The notes under the pieces: model-generated | What the model saw: the letters and a program-made list of their open reading frames with translations, nothing else | What the model was told of the DNA's origin: nothing | Database searches by the model: none | Position numbers and translations under genes: made by a program | Shown: positions 5,529 to 15,602 of the stretch, in pieces | Position numbering within the stretch: position 1 is the first letter of the stretch | Layout: each line of letters opens with the position of its first letter | NCBI GenBank assembly: GCA_025993875.1 | Contig: JAMQHH010000009.1 | Span: 1 to 53,939 of the forward strand | Reading direction: 5' to 3' | Origin: Candidatus Dojkabacteria bacterium | Lineage (GTDB): Bacteria > Patescibacteriota > Dojkabacteria > J137 | DNA length: 53,939 bases

Positions 5529-5579
5529 TTAAACAACAATATTTAAAATTTTCCCTTTTACGTATATTATCTTCTTTAT
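5529..5579 (-). repeat. leuS terminal 51 bp, second copy of the direct repeat
   Basis: Matches 3043..3093; the last 27 nt of the gene, including the stop, are identical. Confidence 0.9.
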
Positions 5580-8500
5580 CCCACCATCTAAATACTTTGC
5601 AATGTTTTTTTCCTCTTTGGCCATGGCCATAACTTCCCACTCCAGTGCCTCGGTTGAAACTTCGATAGTTCCCCTAACTTTCCCATTTATCTGAACAGCA
5701 ATTTTTACTGTCTCATCTTTTAAAAGCTCTTCCCTGGCTTCTGGCCAGCTTGATTGGTGAATGGAATAACTGTTGCCTAAAATGCTCCAAAGCTCTTCAG
5801 TAATAAATGGAGCAAAGGGGGCTAAAAGTTTAAGTAATATTTCAAATAGATCTTTTTTAACAAATTCAAATTCACCCAAATAGTTAACAGTTTCCATAAA
5901 TTTAGCAACTGAGGTGTTAAAAGAGAGGTTTTCTATATCACTACTTACTTTTTTAATAAGTTTATGTAAAGCAACCTCTTGCTTTTTTGCTACTTCGAGG
6001 TTTATCATTTCTGTTTTTACCCTGTCCTTTAGCTCCCAGACTTTCTTTAAAAATCTAAAGACACCGTTTTCTGCCCTATTGTTCCAAGGTTTTGCTTCTT
6101 CAAATGGTCCCATAAACATTTCGTACATTCTAAGGGTATCGGCACCAAACGTGTTTACTTCGTCCGTTGGATTTATAACATTTCCCCATCTTTTGCTCAT
6201 TTTTCTGCCGTCCGGCCCTAAAATTAAACCCATATGTCTCATCTTTGTAAAAGGCTCATCGAAATTAATATAGCCCTGGTCGAAAAAAAATTTGGTAAAA
6301 AATCTAGAATACAAAAGATGTAAAACTGTGTGCTCGGTTCCAATAATATACAAGTCCGAAGGAAGCCAAAGATTAGCCTGTGTATTTTGAGCCTCCAAAA
6401 AATTTATCAGCTGGGTGTTTTCTCTTCTTTTATAATGGTTAATCAAACTGTTTAAAGGCGCTATATATGCAATACTGCTATTAAATGGAACTAAAACTCT
6501 TTGTTCCCATATCTTTTTATCCCATTCTACCTCTATAAGTTCAACCTCTAAATCTCCTTTCTTAAATGCTAGAATCTGCCCTCTTTGGTCGTTTTTTAAT
6601 GTTACATATAAATTTTCGCTTTCAGATTCAAAGTTACAGCCAATAGTTTCTAAAATCTTTTTTGCAGTGTCGATAGAATCTTTTGAAATAAAAAAATCAA
6701 TATCTCCAAGCTCTTTGTGCGGAGATCTGTTTAACAAAGAAACGGCTACCGACCCGAAAACAGCATAATCAACTTTTTGTTCGGCAAATTTGCCTACGAG
6801 TGTTTCCAGCACTTGGTAAAGTGATTTGTTACTTTCGGAATTTGTAACTGAAGGCAAAAATTTTGGCAAAGAAAAGATTTCCGATTCGTTTTTATTTTCA
6901 ATGTATCTTAAAAAATACCAGCTGGAATCTACAAAAGTATCCATTGTGTCCGATTCAAAATACCATCCCTTACCGTATTTGGATTCGGCAATTTCTTTAA
7001 AACTTTTACTTGCTTTTATTGGAGATTCCCCGGTAGGCTTAAAATCTACATCTTCGGGCAGTAAAAGCGGCAGGTCCTCTTCTTTTACGGGATGAATGTT
7101 TCCTTCCGGATCGTAAACAATTGGTATCGGAGCTCCCCAATACCTTTGGCGAGAAACAAGCCAGTCCCGTAATTTATATAAAATAGTCTTTTCTCCTAAT
7201 TCGTTTTTTAAAAGCCAATCCTGCATTTCGCTTGTTGCAGTATCAGAACTTTTTTGCGAATAATCAATTTCTGCTTTTGAAAAGATAAATTCCAAAAGTT
7301 CATTCTCGCTCTTTGTTAAGTTAATGTCATTTACCGGTTCTTTTGTCGTTGAATTACTAAATTTATAGATTTCTGCAGAACTTACATACTCAAAAACATT
7401 TTCCCACTTTATATTTAAAGAGTTGAATTCTATAAATAATTCATCTTTTTCTTTGAGATCATAGCCAACAATAAAAAGTGAATTATCAGTTTTTAAAAAA
7501 TCTACACCCTGCCAATAGCCAAACCTGTTATAGCTTATTTTATATTTATCTTGTAACCTTTCTAAATCCGAATCGGCTATAAGCGGCTCTTTAATAACGA
7601 TTACCGATTTAACATAATCAAATCTAAATGGTTTTTTAAATGAATTTACTAAAACTCCTTTGCCTGTAAAGAGATTTTCGGGGAAATTTTCAATTTTAGT
7701 TTTTGTATCAAGCCCTAAATTTTTTGTCAATCTAACGCCTCGCAAAAGTATTTCCTGCCAGTGTTTTGTGCCTTCGGCATTGTAAGATTCTATAATTTCT
7801 TTCGGCGAAAGCCATACAAGTTCAAACCCGACTTCGTGCTCCTCCAAACTCAGCTCTTTTTTTTGTGCTGAATTTAAAACAACAAGCATTCCCTGTGTTT
7901 TTGCAAACCTGTTTATTTTTTTACCAGAATGATAATAGTGTGCATAAACAACCTCACCAAGTTTGTGAATAGATTCGTAGTCCCAAAGCCCTGTTTCTTC
8001 CATTAGCTCTCTTTTTGCAGTTTGGTAATAATCCTCGTTATCGCTTATACCACCAGAAACAAGCCCTACAAATCCGTTTTTATGTTTAATAAATCCATAC
8101 TCTCCATTTTGTTTATTAAACAAAACTAAAGATACACCATCAACAAACTGCTCGTTAGGTTTTGGTTCTCCAAACTCTTTTGCAATAACGGGAAATACAG
8201 GAAGGTTATATTTTACGGCAAATTCGTTGTCCCTTTCATCGTGGGCAGGAACTGCCATAATCGCACCGGTACCATAGGTATTTAAAACATAATCTGCAAC
8301 AAAAATTGGAAGCCTATCCTGGTTAAAAGGGTTAATAGCTTTAACCCCCATTAGCTCTACTCCTGTTTTTTCCTTTTGCATTTGGCGCTCGAGGTCTGTT
8401 TTATTTTTGGCAGCTTTTACGTATTCTCTAACCTCAGAGATATTTCGAATAACATCTTTATACTTCTCTATAACTTGATTTTCCGGCGATACAACTAAAA

Positions 8501-9284
8501 AGGTGCACCCGAAAATTGTGTCTAATCTGGTTGTAAAAATTTCAATTTCTCCGGGTAAAGTCGAAGTGAATTCACCTTCAACCTTAAATTTTACCTTTGT
8601 ACCCTCACTTTTACCTATCCAGTTTCTTTGTTGCTGTTTTGTTCCTTCGGGCCAATCTACTCTTTCGAGATCTTTATCCAGTCTATCGGCAAAATCTGTT
8701 ATCTTAAAAAACCACTGAGACATCTCTTTTTGTTCGACAAGGGTATCGCACCTTTCGCATTTGCCATCTATTACCTGTTCGTTTGCCAAAACAGTTTGGT
8801 CTTTTGGACACCAGTTTACTGGTGCAAGTTTTTTATATGCTAATCCTTTTTTGTAAAGCTGCAAAAATATCCATTGAGTCCATTTGTAATAATCGGCTCT
8901 ATGTGTTCCTACCTCTTTATCCCAGTCAACACCTATCCCAACTTTATTTATCTGCTCAATAAAATTAGCCACAGACTCCTCGGTTTTTATATGTGGATGA
9001 ACCCCTGTTTTTATGGCAAAGTTTTCGGCCGGTAATCCAAAGCCATCCCAGCCCATCGGCATAATTGTTGTAAAACCATTCATTCTGTAATATCTTGCAA
9101 CAATATCGTTCGCAACCATTCCCTCTACATGCCCAACATGCAATCCATCTCCCGAAGGATAAGGAAAAGAGTACAGAGAATAAAACTTCTTGGTATTGCT
9201 ATCAATTAAACCCGCTGAATAGATTTTATCTTTTAACCACTTTTCTCTCCATTTTGTTTCGAAGTCACTTGGTTTGTATTCCAT
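5529..9284 (-). CDS. leuS: Leucine--tRNA ligase with three inserted domains (Nudix, unknown, nucleotidyltransferase)
   Basis: FPYPSGDGLHVGH (HIGH), GWDGFGLPAEN, editing motifs TTRLDT and GTGAIMAVPAHD, LRDWLVSRQRYWG, TMDTFVDSSWY and KMSKR. At 1251 aa it is far longer than a typical bacterial LeuRS. Confidence 0.97.
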   Translation of the reverse strand: MEYKPSDFETKWREKWLKDKIYSAGLIDSNTKKFYSLYSFPYPSGDGLHVGHVEGMVANDIVARYYRMNGFTTIMPMGWDGFGLPAENFAIKTGVHPHIKTEESVANFIEQINKVGIGVDWDKEVGTHRADYYKWTQWIFLQLYKKGLAYKKLAPVNWCPKDQTVLANEQVIDGKCERCDTLVEQKEMSQWFFKITDFADRLDKDLERVDWPEGTKQQQRNWIGKSEGTKVKFKVEGEFTSTLPGEIEIFTTRLDTIFGCTFLVVSPENQVIEKYKDVIRNISEVREYVKAAKNKTDLERQMQKEKTGVELMGVKAINPFNQDRLPIFVADYVLNTYGTGAIMAVPAHDERDNEFAVKYNLPVFPVIAKEFGEPKPNEQFVDGVSLVLFNKQNGEYGFIKHKNGFVGLVSGGISDNEDYYQTAKRELMEETGLWDYESIHKLGEVVYAHYYHSGKKINRFAKTQGMLVVLNSAQKKELSLEEHEVGFELVWLSPKEIIESYNAEGTKHWQEILLRGVRLTKNLGLDTKTKIENFPENLFTGKGVLVNSFKKPFRFDYVKSVIVIKEPLIADSDLERLQDKYKISYNRFGYWQGVDFLKTDNSLFIVGYDLKEKDELFIEFNSLNIKWENVFEYVSSAEIYKFSNSTTKEPVNDINLTKSENELLEFIFSKAEIDYSQKSSDTATSEMQDWLLKNELGEKTILYKLRDWLVSRQRYWGAPIPIVYDPEGNIHPVKEEDLPLLLPEDVDFKPTGESPIKASKSFKEIAESKYGKGWYFESDTMDTFVDSSWYFLRYIENKNESEIFSLPKFLPSVTNSESNKSLYQVLETLVGKFAEQKVDYAVFGSVAVSLLNRSPHKELGDIDFFISKDSIDTAKKILETIGCNFESESENLYVTLKNDQRGQILAFKKGDLEVELIEVEWDKKIWEQRVLVPFNSSIAYIAPLNSLINHYKRRENTQLINFLEAQNTQANLWLPSDLYIIGTEHTVLHLLYSRFFTKFFFDQGYINFDEPFTKMRHMGLILGPDGRKMSKRWGNVINPTDEVNTFGADTLRMYEMFMGPFEEAKPWNNRAENGVFRFLKKVWELKDRVKTEMINLEVAKKQEVALHKLIKKVSSDIENLSFNTSVAKFMETVNYLGEFEFVKKDLFEILLKLLAPFAPFITEELWSILGNSYSIHQSSWPEAREELLKDETVKIAVQINGKVRGTIEVSTEALEWEVMAMAKEEKNIAKYLDGGIKKIIYVKGKILNIVV

Positions 9285-11339: not shown

Positions 11340-12839
11340 TTACACGTTTTCTTTTTCCAGATACTGCTTCGCCAGCCTTAGCAGATCTATTTTTTTATTA
11401 AAAGCTGGTTCTTCGACAACTTTATCCAGTAAAAATTTCAAAGTATCTCCAATTGCTTTACCTGCTTGCAGATTAAAGTTTTGCATTAGATCGGTTCCGG
11501 TTATATCGAGATCTGTAACTTTTAAAGCCATATCTTTTGCTCTTACTGCTGAGATTCTCTTAGATAAAATATCCAGTTCCTTTGGGTTAAATTCGCTTTT
11601 AGGATTCGAAGCTGCATCGGCAATTCTAAGTTTCATTAATTTTTCGATTGCTTCTTCTCCTCCCACATTAATAATTAGTCTTCTTATTGCTGCATCGCTC
11701 CAGCCATGAATATTTTTTTCGCGATTATTTTCAATTTCATCTTTCCATTCTTTTAAGAGAGATTCCGAAACATTTCTTTTTCCCTCTTTTTCCTCACGCC
11801 AGTTAACCGATGGATAATAAAACATATGCCATCTTACAAGGCGGGATGTTTCTTCTATTTCAGCGTTAGAAAATTTTAACCGCTTAAGAATCAACTTAGT
11901 CATTTCGGCACCCATTAAATCGTGGCCGTAAAAGTGAACACCCTTTTCATCTTTTAAATAGCATCTTGGCTTTGCTATATCGTGAAATAAGGCAGCCAGT
12001 TTTACCACATCTTCTGCCTCATCTACTGTTTTAACAGTGTGTGTAAAAACATCGTCTACATGGTATTGAGGCTGCATCATTGAAACTCCTTCTAAAAGTT
12101 CAGGTATAAAAAGTTCTAATATCCCTGCTTCTGCCAATAGTTTTAATCCAACCGAAGGTTTTGGCGAATTGTATAAAAGTTTTTCCAGCTCTTCTCTAAA
12201 ACGCTCTATTGAAACCTGTTTTGTTACATGTAAAGTTTGCTTTATTGATTCAAAAGTAGTTTGCTCAATTTCAAACTGCAGTTGCGAAGCTAATCTACAC
12301 GCTCTAACACCTCTCAGTCCATCTTCAGAAAATCTATCAAAAGGATTTCCTACTGCTTTTATTAACTTTTTTTCAAGATCGGATTTACCGTCAAACGGGT
12401 CTACAACATCGTTATTTGGGTCCAGGTCATCTAGCTTTAATAAATCAATTGCAATTGCGTTTATTGTAAAGTCCCTCCTTGCCAAATCATCTTCAATTTT
12501 TTTTGCATATGTTACTTTGGCCGGCCATCTACCATTAATATAATCTTCTTCAGATCTAAAAGTTGTAACCTCTATATCGAATTTTTCGTCAAATTCATCT
12601 GCGCATACTACTGTTATTGTTCCAAATTTTGCACCCGTTGGAATCGATTTAGGAAAAATTTTAATAATCTCTTCGGGATAGGCGTTTGTTGCGATATCGT
12701 AATCCTTAGGTGTTTTTCCTAAAAGCAAGTCTCTAACCGAACCTCCTACCAGATATGCCAGAAAACCATTTTGTTGAAGCGTTTTGGCAGTATCTATAAC
12801 GTATTTGGGGATTAAATTTTTAAAAACAGGAATCTTCAT
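11340..12839 (-). CDS. cca: Class II tRNA nucleotidyltransferase (CCA-adding enzyme) with HD domain
   Basis: YLVGGSVRDLLLG..DYDIAT, DLARRDFTINA, EDGLR, LFHDIAKP, and an intact flexible loop RSEEDY..RWP. Start placed at ATG 12839. Confidence 0.88.
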   Translation of the reverse strand: MKIPVFKNLIPKYVIDTAKTLQQNGFLAYLVGGSVRDLLLGKTPKDYDIATNAYPEEIIKIFPKSIPTGAKFGTITVVCADEFDEKFDIEVTTFRSEEDYINGRWPAKVTYAKKIEDDLARRDFTINAIAIDLLKLDDLDPNNDVVDPFDGKSDLEKKLIKAVGNPFDRFSEDGLRGVRACRLASQLQFEIEQTTFESIKQTLHVTKQVSIERFREELEKLLYNSPKPSVGLKLLAEAGILELFIPELLEGVSMMQPQYHVDDVFTHTVKTVDEAEDVVKLAALFHDIAKPRCYLKDEKGVHFYGHDLMGAEMTKLILKRLKFSNAEIEETSRLVRWHMFYYPSVNWREEKEGKRNVSESLLKEWKDEIENNREKNIHGWSDAAIRRLIINVGGEEAIEKLMKLRIADAASNPKSEFNPKELDILSKRISAVRAKDMALKVTDLDITGTDLMQNFNLQAGKAIGDTLKFLLDKVVEEPAFNKKIDLLRLAKQYLEKENV

Positions 12840-12941
12840 AATAAAAAATAATGATAATACAAAATTATACAGCATACTAAAGAGGAGAACTACTGGTTTG
12901 AGTGCAAACGAAGTTGCTTTAATTTATTCTGTCTTGTTGTG

Positions 12942-13003
12942 ACCACTACAAAAAGATGGCGCCTTGATGGAACTCGCCGTGCCTGCCGGCAGGAACCACT
13001 ACA
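12942..13003. repeat. REP-like GC-rich palindrome cluster, left
   Basis: ACCACTACA twice (12942, 12995), palindrome CCTGCCGGCAGG (12982..12993), and GCCTTGATGGAACTC (12961..12975). Confidence 0.65.
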
Positions 13004-13009
13004 TTTTTT

Positions 13010-14767
13010 CTAAAACGAATAGCACCGCCAGCTTTGTGCCGGTGTCCCGCCGGATCCGCTTTGAATAGCAAAAGCATTACTTTTATTATAGGTTTGACTA
13101 CAAATATCATCGTAATCCTCAATACTCAGTTCGTAATGGCCGGGGTTATCACAGTACCAGTGATCAGAGTTACTTGTTGTTCTACCATATCCTTTTTGTG
13201 TGCAAAAGCCTTCCACCTGAAAATTACCATTACTCATAACAGCACCGTTAGAAAGTCCCGTTCCGTTTTGTAATAAATTTGCGCCCGGTGGAACGGAATC
13301 TCTATCTTCAACCGGTGGAGTTGGCTTTATAATTACAGTTGGTGTAGGGTTAACTGATCTGGCTGTAAAGTTTTTTACAAATCTGTCAAAATCCACAATA
13401 TCGGGTTTGGACTTATTGTTTTCGGCCATTGCTCCAAAACTATTACAACTTTTACTGCTCCATTCAGCAGGACAGCTTGATGTATAAGCCTGTGCAAAAT
13501 ACGAAAAATCTATTATATCTATTTTATTATTTCCATCGGTATCCATCGGACCACAAGGACCGCATCTTCCTCCGCCACCTCCTCCTGTTGTGCAAACCTT
13601 GGCAATAAAGTCTACTGTATTTATATTATCGTTCGAAGAATTAGTTACATATTTTCCTTGTTGATTACTGCAAGTGTTTACAGTATATCCTGTTCCTTCC
13701 GGCATTGTATTTGGTACACAGATGCCTGTTTGTTTTACTCCATTAGCTTCCACAAGACAAGAACTCTCCTTAAATGCACAGCTATAACCGCTAACACACA
13801 ATCCTAAATTTTCGTTACAAGCCTGTCCGCAAGTATTTGTTGCAGGAGCTACATTGGCTGTTTGGCACCTGCATCCTGCACCGCTCGTTAAAGTACATGT
13901 ACACCCTCCTTGATTGGAATTTACCTCTTTATTAAAACATTGCGCATCGGTAGTAGACGGATCGCTATTACATGTTGTTGGTGTTGTACTTCCTCCTCCT
14001 CCTCCGGTATTGCCCCCTCCTCCTGTGTTTCCTCCTCCTGAATTATCTCCCCCGCCGGTATTTCCACCTCCACCCGTATCGGAATCGCTTCCTCCTGTTA
14101 AACAGTTCCATCCCAGCCCAAGGGTACATGCATTAACATAGCCTCCAACAGTGTCTGGCCTATTATTTTTGTCCAGGTTAGGATGTTTTATAGTAACATC
14201 ATCTGCGTCAACATTTACATAAACCCATACTGAGTTCTTATCATCAGTGCCAATCGAACATTTATCAATTGATGAGTAAGTTATTTTTTTCCCGGATTTA
14301 ATAACTCCAATAATATTACTTGAGTCTTTTGCAGTAGTAGTTGAACGGATATTTATTTCTGTTGGAGCATCCGTTGAGCCTGATTCAAGCTTTTTGTCGC
14401 AAATTGTTTTCTTACATTGTACATCAGCCTTACAAAAATATGTACATGACAAGTCGTTTGTAGCGGGGGGGCATGATGTTGCATTAAAGCTTACATATGG
14501 TTTCTCGAATGCTTTACATTTAACCTGTCCACTGTTTGAACAAACAGCTGCCTTTATGGTTTTGTTAAGGCCACAATCTGCACCAGGGTCGTTATACGCA
14601 AGTTCACATTTAACAAGTTTGGGGTCGGCGCTACTATCTTCCGGAGCAATTGAGTTATTAGTTACAAAAAACGAAATTAGCCCAAGCAGAAAAAGAAGGG
14701 TTAACGCAACCAAAAGCTTTAATGCATTTGAGGAAATAAAAAAGATTTTTGGCCTTTTAATCTTCAT
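13010..14767 (-). CDS. Membrane-anchored Cys-rich surface protein with SH3-like segment, Gly-rich linker and dockerin/EF-hand-like module
   Basis: N-terminal TM followed by APEDSSA. INIRS..GVIKSG..WVYV is SH3b-like, there are GGGN(T/S) repeats, and DTDGNNKIDIIDF plus a second PDIVDF form a dockerin-like pair. Ends in a Cys/Trp domain. Confidence 0.7.
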   Translation of the reverse strand: MKIKRPKIFFISSNALKLLVALTLLFLLGLISFFVTNNSIAPEDSSADPKLVKCELAYNDPGADCGLNKTIKAAVCSNSGQVKCKAFEKPYVSFNATSCPPATNDLSCTYFCKADVQCKKTICDKKLESGSTDAPTEINIRSTTTAKDSSNIIGVIKSGKKITYSSIDKCSIGTDDKNSVWVYVNVDADDVTIKHPNLDKNNRPDTVGGYVNACTLGLGWNCLTGGSDSDTGGGGNTGGGDNSGGGNTGGGGNTGGGGGSTTPTTCNSDPSTTDAQCFNKEVNSNQGGCTCTLTSGAGCRCQTANVAPATNTCGQACNENLGLCVSGYSCAFKESSCLVEANGVKQTGICVPNTMPEGTGYTVNTCSNQQGKYVTNSSNDNINTVDFIAKVCTTGGGGGGRCGPCGPMDTDGNNKIDIIDFSYFAQAYTSSCPAEWSSKSCNSFGAMAENNKSKPDIVDFDRFVKNFTARSVNPTPTVIIKPTPPVEDRDSVPPGANLLQNGTGLSNGAVMSNGNFQVEGFCTQKGYGRTTSNSDHWYCDNPGHYELSIEDYDDICSQTYNKSNAFAIQSGSGGTPAQSWRCYSF

Positions 14768-14862
14768 AATAATTTACAATATTGGTAATAATATATCACG
14801 ATGTATTGCTGTTGAAAATAGAAAATGTGTAAAATGATAGGTAATTCAAAGCATGTCGGTCA

Positions 14863-15002
14863 TGTAGTGGTTCGAGAGCCTCACCACTACAATTCGAGAG
14901 CCCTCATTTATCCCGCCTTGGCGGGACCACTACAAAATGTGTTGTCCTGAGGGAACCAAAAATGTAGCCTTGAGGGAACTCCCTGTCTGCCGACAGGCAG
15001 GG
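14863..15002. repeat. REP-like GC-rich palindrome cluster, right
   Basis: Hairpin TGTAGTGGT-N11-ACCACTACA (14863..14891), TCCCGCCTTGGCGGGA (14911..14926), GCCTTGAGGGAACTC (14967..14981) and CCTGTCTGCCGACAGG (14982..14997). Confidence 0.7.
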
Positions 15003-15080
15003 AAAGGCGGCTTGACTTAAAAGTGTTCAGCAGCTATTTATTACTAGAACTGATTTGCAATCGGCTCTCTAAATACATAT

Positions 15081-15602
15081 TTAATCCTCTCTCTCCAGTT
15101 CCTCTGCAGTATATAGTTCCGATGGGTCGGGCACATATTTTAAAAACAAAATGCCGTCCAGATGGTCAACCTCGTGTTGAACAACATGCGAAAAATACCC
15201 TTTCGCTTCTAATACTTTTTCCTTTCCATCTTTATCAAAAAACTTTACTGTTATCTCACTTGCTCTTGCCACCTCTGCAAAAAGCCCTCCGTTGGAAACA
15301 CTTAAGCAGCCTTCCCAAAAAGTTGAAATCTCTGAACTTTTTTTTGTAATTACAGGGTTAATCATAACTTCCCAGATTATTTTTTTACTTTTATTCTCTT
15401 CTTCTAAATCCATTCTACGGCACAATGCAATTCTTTTATTATACCCTATTTGCGGCGCCGAAAGTCCACCGCTATGGTCCTTTACGGTTTCGACCGTTTC
15501 GAGTAATTCTTTAATAATTTTTTGTGTTTCTTTAGAATTGATATCAGCCAAAACCGATGGTGTTGTAAGGATTTTATTTCCAAATTGAAGTATTTTTTTC
15601 AT
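15081..15602 (-). CDS. def: Peptide deformylase
   Basis: GGLSAPQIG, EGCLS and QHEVDHLDG. Start placed at ATG 15602. Confidence 0.95.
   Translation of the reverse strand: MKKILQFGNKILTTPSVLADINSKETQKIIKELLETVETVKDHSGGLSAPQIGYNKRIALCRRMDLEEENKSKKIIWEVMINPVITKKSSEISTFWEGCLSVSNGGLFAEVARASEITVKFFDKDGKEKVLEAKGYFSHVVQHEVDHLDGILFLKYVPDPSELYTAEELERED

Follow-up and report, generated by a model that had tools for sequence, protein, structure and literature searches.

A predicted Pol-beta-type nucleotidyltransferase nested in the leucyl-tRNA synthetase of a Dojkabacteria bacterium, among exchangeable enzyme cassettes of Patescibacteria leuS genes

The leucyl-tRNA synthetase (LeuRS) gene, leuS, of a tiny-genome wastewater bacterium of the Dojkabacteria (Patescibacteria) carries a predicted nucleotidyltransferase (NTase) of the Pol-beta type inside the fold of its catalytic domain. 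The gene is read on the minus strand at positions 5529–9284 of the window, the 53,939-nucleotide contig JAMQHH010000009.1 analysed here, and by translation of its open reading frame and Pfam assignment encodes a LeuRS of 1251 residues. Alignment to canonical LeuRS, the family PF14907, AlphaFold2 modelling and Foldseek together delimit the nested domain to residues 805–969 (165 residues; window 6378–6872, minus strand), within a few bases of the interval 6385–6870 and the length of ~160 residues given in a first-pass annotation of this DNA. Our analysis shows that the insert is transcribed with the synthetase core and is one of the exchangeable leuS cassettes of Patescibacteria, and in the structural model it folds as an autonomous NTase. 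In the reading that we favour, and hold to be moderately probable, a captured NTase would act on a diffusible small molecule, with LeuRS serving mainly as its carrier.

The host protein bears the motifs and the CP1, anticodon-binding and C-terminal domains of a bacterial-type LeuRS. Pfam recognizes in it the class I synthetase core, the CP1 editing domain (PF13603, E = 4e-52), the anticodon-binding domain, a NUDIX domain and PF14907, and the match to PF08264 reaches E = 3e-23. The HIGH motif is present as HVGH (residues 49–52) and the KMSKS motif as KMSKR (residues 1028–1032), both CP1 editing motifs, TTRLDT and AHDERD, are kept, and the core is 60–70% identical to canonical Dojkabacteria LeuRS. 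Because the HIGH, KMSKS and CP1 motifs are preserved and the gene is the only LeuRS copy in the 0.93 Mb, 96%-complete genome, the synthetase would still work normally.

In the alignment, the insert stands in place of about five residues (DSEKV) of the canonical 806-residue LeuRS of a relative (P0015/G001), at a position termed site D. It begins with SLPKF and ends with NTQ, followed by ANLW; its flanks are EIF on the upstream side and NLWLPSDLYIIGTEH on the downstream side. The 15-residue LeuRS segment upstream of the insert (residues 780–794; window 6903–6947, minus strand) forms Rossmann strand 4 and the following helix, and the downstream segment PSDLYIIGTEH (residues 975–985; window 6330–6362, minus strand) forms Rossmann strand 5 together with the GxEH motif. 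The insert thus occupies the loop that joins the helix after strand 4 (SSWYFLRY) to strand 5 (DLYIIG). The LeuRS core stays in one frame on either side of it, and its GC content resembles that of its surroundings. In a parallel Rossmann sheet, the edge formed by the C-terminal ends of the strands binds the substrates and helix-to-strand connections sit at the opposite edge, so the NTase should lie on the face of the catalytic domain that points away from the leucyl-adenylate pocket.

The insert is assigned to the small NTases by both sequence profiles and structure prediction. Searched alone, it matches PF14907 with 38.2 bits (E = 1.5e-9; gathering cut-off 31.2), the sole family whose curated cut-off it passes; within the whole LeuRS, the match covers residues 814–916 with 33.2 bits and model positions 48–142 of 249. 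All four orthologous inserts match PF14907 (best E = 1e-11), and three of the four match PF10706, the ANT(2'') family (best E = 1.2e-8, counting matches up to E = 1), to which the insert of the window scores 16.3 bits against a cut-off of 21. AlphaFold2, run on the insert with a four-sequence alignment, returned a model of high confidence (predicted local distance difference test, pLDDT, 88.6; predicted template-modelling score, pTM, 0.86) with the alpha-beta-alpha-beta-alpha-beta core of the Pol-beta fold. The best 15 Foldseek matches of this model in the PDB are all small NTases, with template-modelling (TM) scores of 0.48–0.67 that reach at least 0.60 in 14 of them, and at least 20 NTase structures are matched with a Foldseek probability of 1.00. 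The nearest structures are MenT1, LnuA, TM1012 and ANT(2'')-Ia. The first-pass annotation had proposed a Pol-beta-type NTase with an hG[GS]...DxD signature from the motifs DYAVFGSVAV, ELGDIDFFIS and VELIE upstream of PSDLYIIGTEH; all four are present (residues 839–848, 858–867, 914–918 and 975–985, respectively), and both the PF14907 match and the predicted fold bear the proposal out.

Comparison with the characterized relatives places the insert near several of them. By profile, Lnu(A)/LinA is the nearest: a profile of four inserts finds the LnuA chains 4wh5 and 4fo1 as its best PDB matches (E = 1e-5; Foldseek E = 2e-6), with the FGS of the insert over the G-G-W turn of LnuA and its GDID over the RDID of the LnuA metal site (GDIDFF and RDIDID, respectively). 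The two proteins are alike in size (161 and 165 residues), in their minimal NTase fold and in the G-G/S turn, while the alignment is confined to the N-terminal core of ~70 residues. ANT(2'')-Ia (4wqk, 5cfu, 4xje; PF10706) gives the highest TM scores, 0.65–0.67 over 165 columns, and is likewise acidic, at an identity of only 10–12%. The Lnu enzymes, including Lnu(C/D/P/AN2), are free-standing resistance proteins and ANT(2'')-Ia is a free-standing enzyme borne on plasmids or integrons, whereas the insert is nested in an essential synthetase; we know of no lincosamide link for it. Foldseek ranks MenT1 (Rv0078A, DUF1814/AbiEii; 8an4, 8an5) first (E = 1e-6, TM 0.61–0.64), yet this toxin shares no significant sequence or profile similarity with the insert, which is acidic and has no antitoxin partner. 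TM1012 (2fcl, 2ewr, 4hx0) and the other small NTases of PF14907/DUF2204 have the same fold and size (TM 0.62–0.67), but these members are uncharacterized and the family is uninformative on the substrate of the insert.

Membership of the insert in the Lnu and MenT/AbiEii families was rejected; for ANT(2''), the insert of the window scores below the PF10706 cut-off, while three of the four orthologous inserts match that family. The NCBIfam Lnu models NF000061, NF000141, NF000153, NF000017 and NF000236, with cut-offs of 300–340 bits, gave no match for the insert of the window and at most 25 bits for an orthologue (G005). In the search for MenT/AbiEii membership, neither PF08843 nor PADLOC gave a match, the profile reached 8an4 only at E = 1.6, and no partner gene was found. 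The likeness to LnuA and ANT(2'') suggested in the first-pass annotation therefore holds as a resemblance to the nearest characterized relatives by profile, not as membership by curated cut-offs. Taken together, profile searches and modelling confirm the insert as a predicted complete, minimal Pol-beta-type NTase of the LnuA/ANT(2'')-Ia/TM1012 class.

An exhaustive HMMER search of 1.84 billion representative sequences identified 144 relatives of the insert, whereas a scan of JGI metagenomes and word-based searches for homologues of the isolated insert returned only its closest orthologue. The best relatives are free-standing proteins of 150–200 residues that align with the insert over its full length. 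One of them (P0124; E = 4e-11) covers profile positions 6–155 of 160, and its ends (LPAIMTDEN and FVNFLQQFKQE) correspond to those of the insert (LPSVTNSESN and LINFLEAQNTQ). Because free-standing relatives align with it end to end, the insert may well represent a whole small gene, coding for an NTase of ~160 residues, that was captured in-frame in the loop between the helix after strand 4 and strand 5.

The insert is a genuine part of the gene. A 1.4 kb segment that spans both junctions is present in 20 public runs on activated sludge and wastewater, which belong to at least 11 studies. Three different studies supply contigs of 20–45 kb that match window positions 5900–7500 exactly, without joints or indels; these contigs rule out the chimeric assembly that the first-pass annotation had named as a possible refutation. 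Both junctions are also covered, unspliced, by contigs from runs labelled metatranscriptomic, in which DNA carry-over is possible. Two orthologues from other samples, P0002 (85% identical and of equal length) and P0006 (67% identical), have the same architecture and gene neighbourhood, several independent assemblies contain a LeuRS form of 1400 residues with the same insert, and one insert-bearing relative is a single, closed chromosome record of 1.14 Mb (OY969472.1). In all, an NTase occupies site D in ten LeuRS clusters. Removal as an intron or intein is ruled out by the unspliced RNA-derived contigs and by the NTase rather than HINT fold, and the intein signature (terminal Cys/Ser, His-Asn followed by Cys/Ser/Thr, HINT fold) was looked for in the insert and not found. 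A transposon-like insertion was likewise rejected, the terminal direct and inverted repeats being AT-rich chance matches only. Assembly or annotation artefact is thereby excluded; that a chimera, a frameshift fusion or a self-removing element missing from the mature enzyme could account for an insert that runs in one frame through both flanks in independent assemblies is a negligible prospect.

The residues expected of an active NTase are kept. The hG[GS] turn, FGSVAV (residues 843–848; window 6741–6758, minus strand), lies at the junction of strand 1 and helix 2 of the model, and the putative metal-binding [DE]x[DE] pair D861-I-D863 (window 6696–6704, minus strand), aligned with the RDIDID of LnuA, lies in strand 2. 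A candidate third carboxylate is provided by E913-V-E915 within LEVELIE (window 6540–6548, minus strand), in the strand formed by positions 108–115 of the model. Among the ten inserts at site D, whose distant members are only 23–35% identical pairwise, the D/E-x-D pair is present in all ten, as is at least one acidic residue at the same-face positions corresponding to E913 and E915, and the G-S turn is kept in nine and replaced by G-P in one (G008/P0040). The copy at another LeuRS position, site B of P0245, apparently lacks the third carboxylate. For the insert, the ratio of nonsynonymous to synonymous substitution rates (dN/dS) is 0.23 in the comparison with P0002 and 0.12 in that with P0006; it is 0.03–0.11 for the LeuRS core, 0.13–0.18 for the NUDIX insert and 0.25–0.44 for a third insert of the same protein. 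The NTase insert is thus under purifying selection that is less strict than that on the synthetase core. Judged by its conserved residues, it is probably an active transferase of nucleoside monophosphates (NMP).

The NTase is not the only passenger of this LeuRS. A NUDIX domain (residues 382–499; window 7788–8141, minus strand) follows the CP1 editing core at site B and is recognized by PF00293 (E = 8.9e-10) with a perfect Nudix box, GGISDNEDYYQTAKRELMEETGL, in agreement with the second nucleotide-processing domain that the first-pass annotation had placed in the protein. The third insert (residues 550–673; window 7266–7637, minus strand) was located by alignment at site B', the LVNS...MQDWL loop after CP1, and is common to this LeuRS and its two closest orthologues only, at identities of 29–68%. 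Its model is rich in beta-alpha-beta units (pLDDT 84.6); it matches no Pfam family, and its best Foldseek match in the PDB has E = 0.015 and a TM score below 0.4.

Our survey of homologues reveals that such insertions are common in this gene. The LeuRS frames of 41 related genomes range from 796 to 1253 residues and exceed 900 residues in 13, and in a set of 124 LeuRS homologues, biased to relatives of the query, 61 carry at least one insert of at least 35 residues. Five sites recur among these inserts: A where CP1 begins, B and B' beyond CP1, C following RQRYWGxPIP, and D. The description of leuS as a hotspot of domain accretion is thus well founded. The passengers comprise NUDIX, GNAT, PF06821 serine hydrolase, Ham1, HAD, PD-(D/E)XK and NTase domains as well as folds without assignment, and at site D the insert is an NTase in ten of ten cases. 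NTases of this type are further found in LeuRS at site A (L068) and site B (P0245, L070, L071), and a sample of 401 genomes from the phylum yielded eight embedded copies, six of them in LeuRS. Outside LeuRS, the same small NTase, with the motifs FGGLGAA...HQDFDLL, splits the RNase H-like endonuclease domain of two Patescibacteria UvrC proteins of 770–780 residues (L072, 1654–3963, minus strand; L073, 910–3249, plus strand). The most heavily loaded LeuRS, of 1795 residues (L067, 1477–6861, plus strand), contains HAD (residues 249–403), Ham1 (452–556) and NUDIX (817–870) domains, a second ITPase-like segment after RQRYWG and a site-D NTase (1336–1456).

The cassettes turn over rapidly. On the core tree, the minimum number of gains and losses is six for the NTase, ten for site A, eighteen for site B and seven for site C. 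As the survey of homologues proposed in the first-pass annotation brought to light, cores less than 0.1 substitutions per site apart differ by whole cassettes (GNAT, NUDIX or a site-B domain without assignment), as seen in P0064 versus P0071 and within the sets P0068/P0074/P0117 and P0025/P0014/P0027. Such differences between nearly identical cores imply very recent gain or loss in-frame, probably by recombination between strains. For the site-D NTase, a single origin is not rejected (approximately unbiased test, p = 0.33), and the unconstrained tree splits the copies without strong support. Six Dojkabacteria copies form a supported clade, yet their host cores are not sisters, which points to loss, recombinational spread or both. 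In the family census of 27 genomes, three encode the NTase within LeuRS, five encode a free-standing homologue at another locus, and the remaining 19 encode neither. A free-standing NTase beside leuS was looked for in relatives without the insert and not found; in two of the genomes (G018, G022), the homologue lies far from leuS and adjoins a glycosyltransferase. The first-pass annotation had implied that the nucleotide-adding and the nucleotide-removing domain work as a pair, which was not supported: NTase and NUDIX domains co-occur in six of seven raw cases among the top hits, and independent contrasts over six pairs gave no statistical support for their coupling (p ~0.6).

Cassette nesting is also not confined to LeuRS, since the valyl-tRNA synthetase (ValRS) of the same genome carries a nested histidine phosphatase. 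This ValRS (G000 contig C12, ~12080–15300, plus strand; 1072 residues from the first Met) contains the phosphatase (PF00300, E = 3.5e-32) at residues 613–766, just before the DENVFDTWFSSGQWPY strand, and a further stretch of ~130 residues without an assigned family in its CP1 region. By comparison, the isoleucyl-tRNA synthetase of the genome is plain, at 991 residues.

In our favoured explanation, the nested domain would be a Mg2+-dependent enzyme that moves an NMP from a nucleoside triphosphate to a hydroxyl acceptor, and LeuRS, continuing its normal function, would be mainly a constitutively expressed carrier that offers a permissive surface loop at site D. The acceptor would most likely be a diffusible small molecule, nucleoside-, sugar- or antibiotic-like, rather than one held in the catalytic pocket of LeuRS. 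We give such an acceptor a slight preference over the tRNA 3' end because the nearest sequence relatives modify small molecules and because a canonical CCA-adding enzyme is encoded only 2 kb away. The latter is a class II enzyme of 511 residues (window 11340–12875, minus strand), recognized by its GGSVRDLLLG...DYD motif and HD domain, and its position two genes from leuS is repeated on an orthologous contig (L057). The small-molecule and carrier reading is further favoured because every embedded NTase copy is acidic, with isoelectric points of 4.8–6.2 for all 11. Moreover, the occurrence of the NTase at three LeuRS sites and in UvrC suggests that no fixed geometry to the LeuRS pocket is required.

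Several observations weigh against this explanation. The acceptor is our guess and the activity a prediction, and fold topology is the basis on which we place the domain with respect to the LeuRS active site and the tRNA. MenT1, the best structural match, is a toxin that lengthens tRNAs at the 3' end, and LeuRS as host is itself a tRNA-binding protein. In one orthologue, G-P replaces G-S in the catalytic turn, and the insert is clearly less constrained than the core. As 24 of the 27 family genomes are without the LeuRS insert and 19 are without any homologue, the NTase function is dispensable. Finally, the preference of embedded copies for LeuRS hints at a functional link, of which a pure carrier model gives no account.

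That link would be explained if the domain were an NTase acting in cis on tRNA 3' ends, adding to or repairing the acceptor end of tRNA-Leu on LeuRS and thereby tuning or blocking leucylation. We regard this as unlikely, although it agrees with both the LeuRS preference and the top Foldseek rank of MenT1, since MenT enzymes add nucleotides at tRNA acceptor ends (PMC10435456, PMC7450476), and the substrate of MenT1, the tRNA 3' end (PMC10435456), is also that of the host enzyme. However, the TM scores to ANT(2'') and TM1012 equal or exceed those to MenT1, and MenT/AbiEii membership by sequence is lacking. UvrC does not bind tRNA, so one of the hosts of the NTase is no tRNA binder, and by topology site D would lie on the far side of the Rossmann sheet. 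The acidic character of all embedded copies, the spread of the NTase over three LeuRS sites and the presence of the canonical CCA-adding enzyme also argue against a tRNA substrate. The CCA-adding enzyme by itself rules out a role of the insert as a needed substitute for that activity.

A little less probable still is a catalytically silent domain with a structural or regulatory role, such as dimerization, nucleotide sensing or a docking surface. Relaxed selection (dN/dS of 0.23 against 0.03–0.09 in the core), the G-P turn of one orthologue, the apparent loss of the third carboxylate from the site-B copy of P0245 and the dispensability of the domain across the family are all compatible with loss of catalysis. 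By comparison, the D/E-x-D pair and the acidic residue of the strand persist in ten of ten site-D inserts despite their low identity, a pattern typical of retained catalysis.

Two wider proposals would bring the cassettes together into a common function. In the first, which we consider doubtful, the housekeeping proteins of Patescibacteria, LeuRS foremost but also ValRS and UvrC, would be racks of live cassettes swapped between strains by recombination and wired to LeuRS for on-target defence or quality control; the NTase, GNAT, serine hydrolase, NUDIX and Ham1 cassettes and the HIT-like gene that neighbours leuS would destroy or modify aminoacyl-adenylate mimics, stray dinucleoside polyphosphates or damaged tRNA ends. 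The second, narrower proposal, more doubtful again, is that the NTase, GNAT, serine hydrolase and NUDIX cassettes, together with the HIT-like neighbour, might guard the synthetase by inactivating non-hydrolysable mimics of aminoacyl-adenylates, the NTase nucleotidylating a ribose hydroxyl of the inhibitor. The cassette repertoire would parallel the chemistries of microcin C-type immunity, in which MccE2 is a GNAT acetyltransferase, MccF a serine peptidase and MccH a HIT hydrolase, and LeuRS is the target of TM84, the warhead of agrocin 84 and a natural Leu-AMP mimic (PMC8323819). LnuA and ANT(2'') likewise inactivate antibiotics through O-nucleotidylation. This argument is wholly analogical, however, and parts of the analogy fail: the serine hydrolase here belongs to PF06821 and MccF to the S66 family, the HAD, Ham1, histidine-phosphatase and PD-(D/E)XK cassettes fall outside the scheme, and the NTase is nested in UvrC too. 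We know of no such inhibitor from these habitats.

Known modules of LeuRS (CP1, ZN1/ZN2 and the leucine-specific domain) set a precedent for whole modules within the Rossmann fold, and site C coincides with the region after RQRYWGxPIP. The leucine-specific domain (E. coli A571–M617) has its place ~45 residues downstream of site D, which is therefore a different location. Whereas the known modules serve aminoacylation and editing, the cassettes described here appear to be autonomous enzymes of other families. The leucine-specific domain is otherwise absent from this LeuRS, which has a GPDG tetrapeptide immediately before KMSKR (residues ~1016–1032; window 6192–6240, minus strand), reminiscent of the GKDG tetrapeptide of Mycoplasma mobile LeuRS, where the tetrapeptide and linker are functional (PMC3643597).

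Full-text literature searches returned no account of a bacterial aminoacyl-tRNA synthetase with a nested NTase or with exchangeable enzyme cassettes inside it, and public records annotate these proteins as 'leucine--tRNA ligase', 'alpha/beta (fold) hydrolase' or 'hypothetical protein'. The gain of extra domains by aminoacyl-tRNA synthetases is seen as characteristic of eukaryotes, in which most such domains are appended and lack catalytic activity. Our finding extends the known accretion and nesting of modules in these enzymes to passengers that are whole enzymes and turn over fast. In annotation, screens for resistance genes would miss a nested fold of the antibiotic-modifying type, and over-calling is equally to be avoided. 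A bacterium with a genome of 0.93 Mb thus houses whole, apparently working enzymes within the catalytic and editing folds of its sole LeuRS, and related lineages combine at least seven enzyme families at five LeuRS sites, with up to five in the LeuRS of 1795 residues. This raises the questions of how the Rossmann fold tolerates inserts of 150–200 residues, by what mode cassettes are exchanged in-frame, and whether the passengers act on ligands of the synthetase, such as tRNA ends, aminoacyl-adenylates and diadenosine tetraphosphate (Ap4A), or ride on a constitutively expressed gene.

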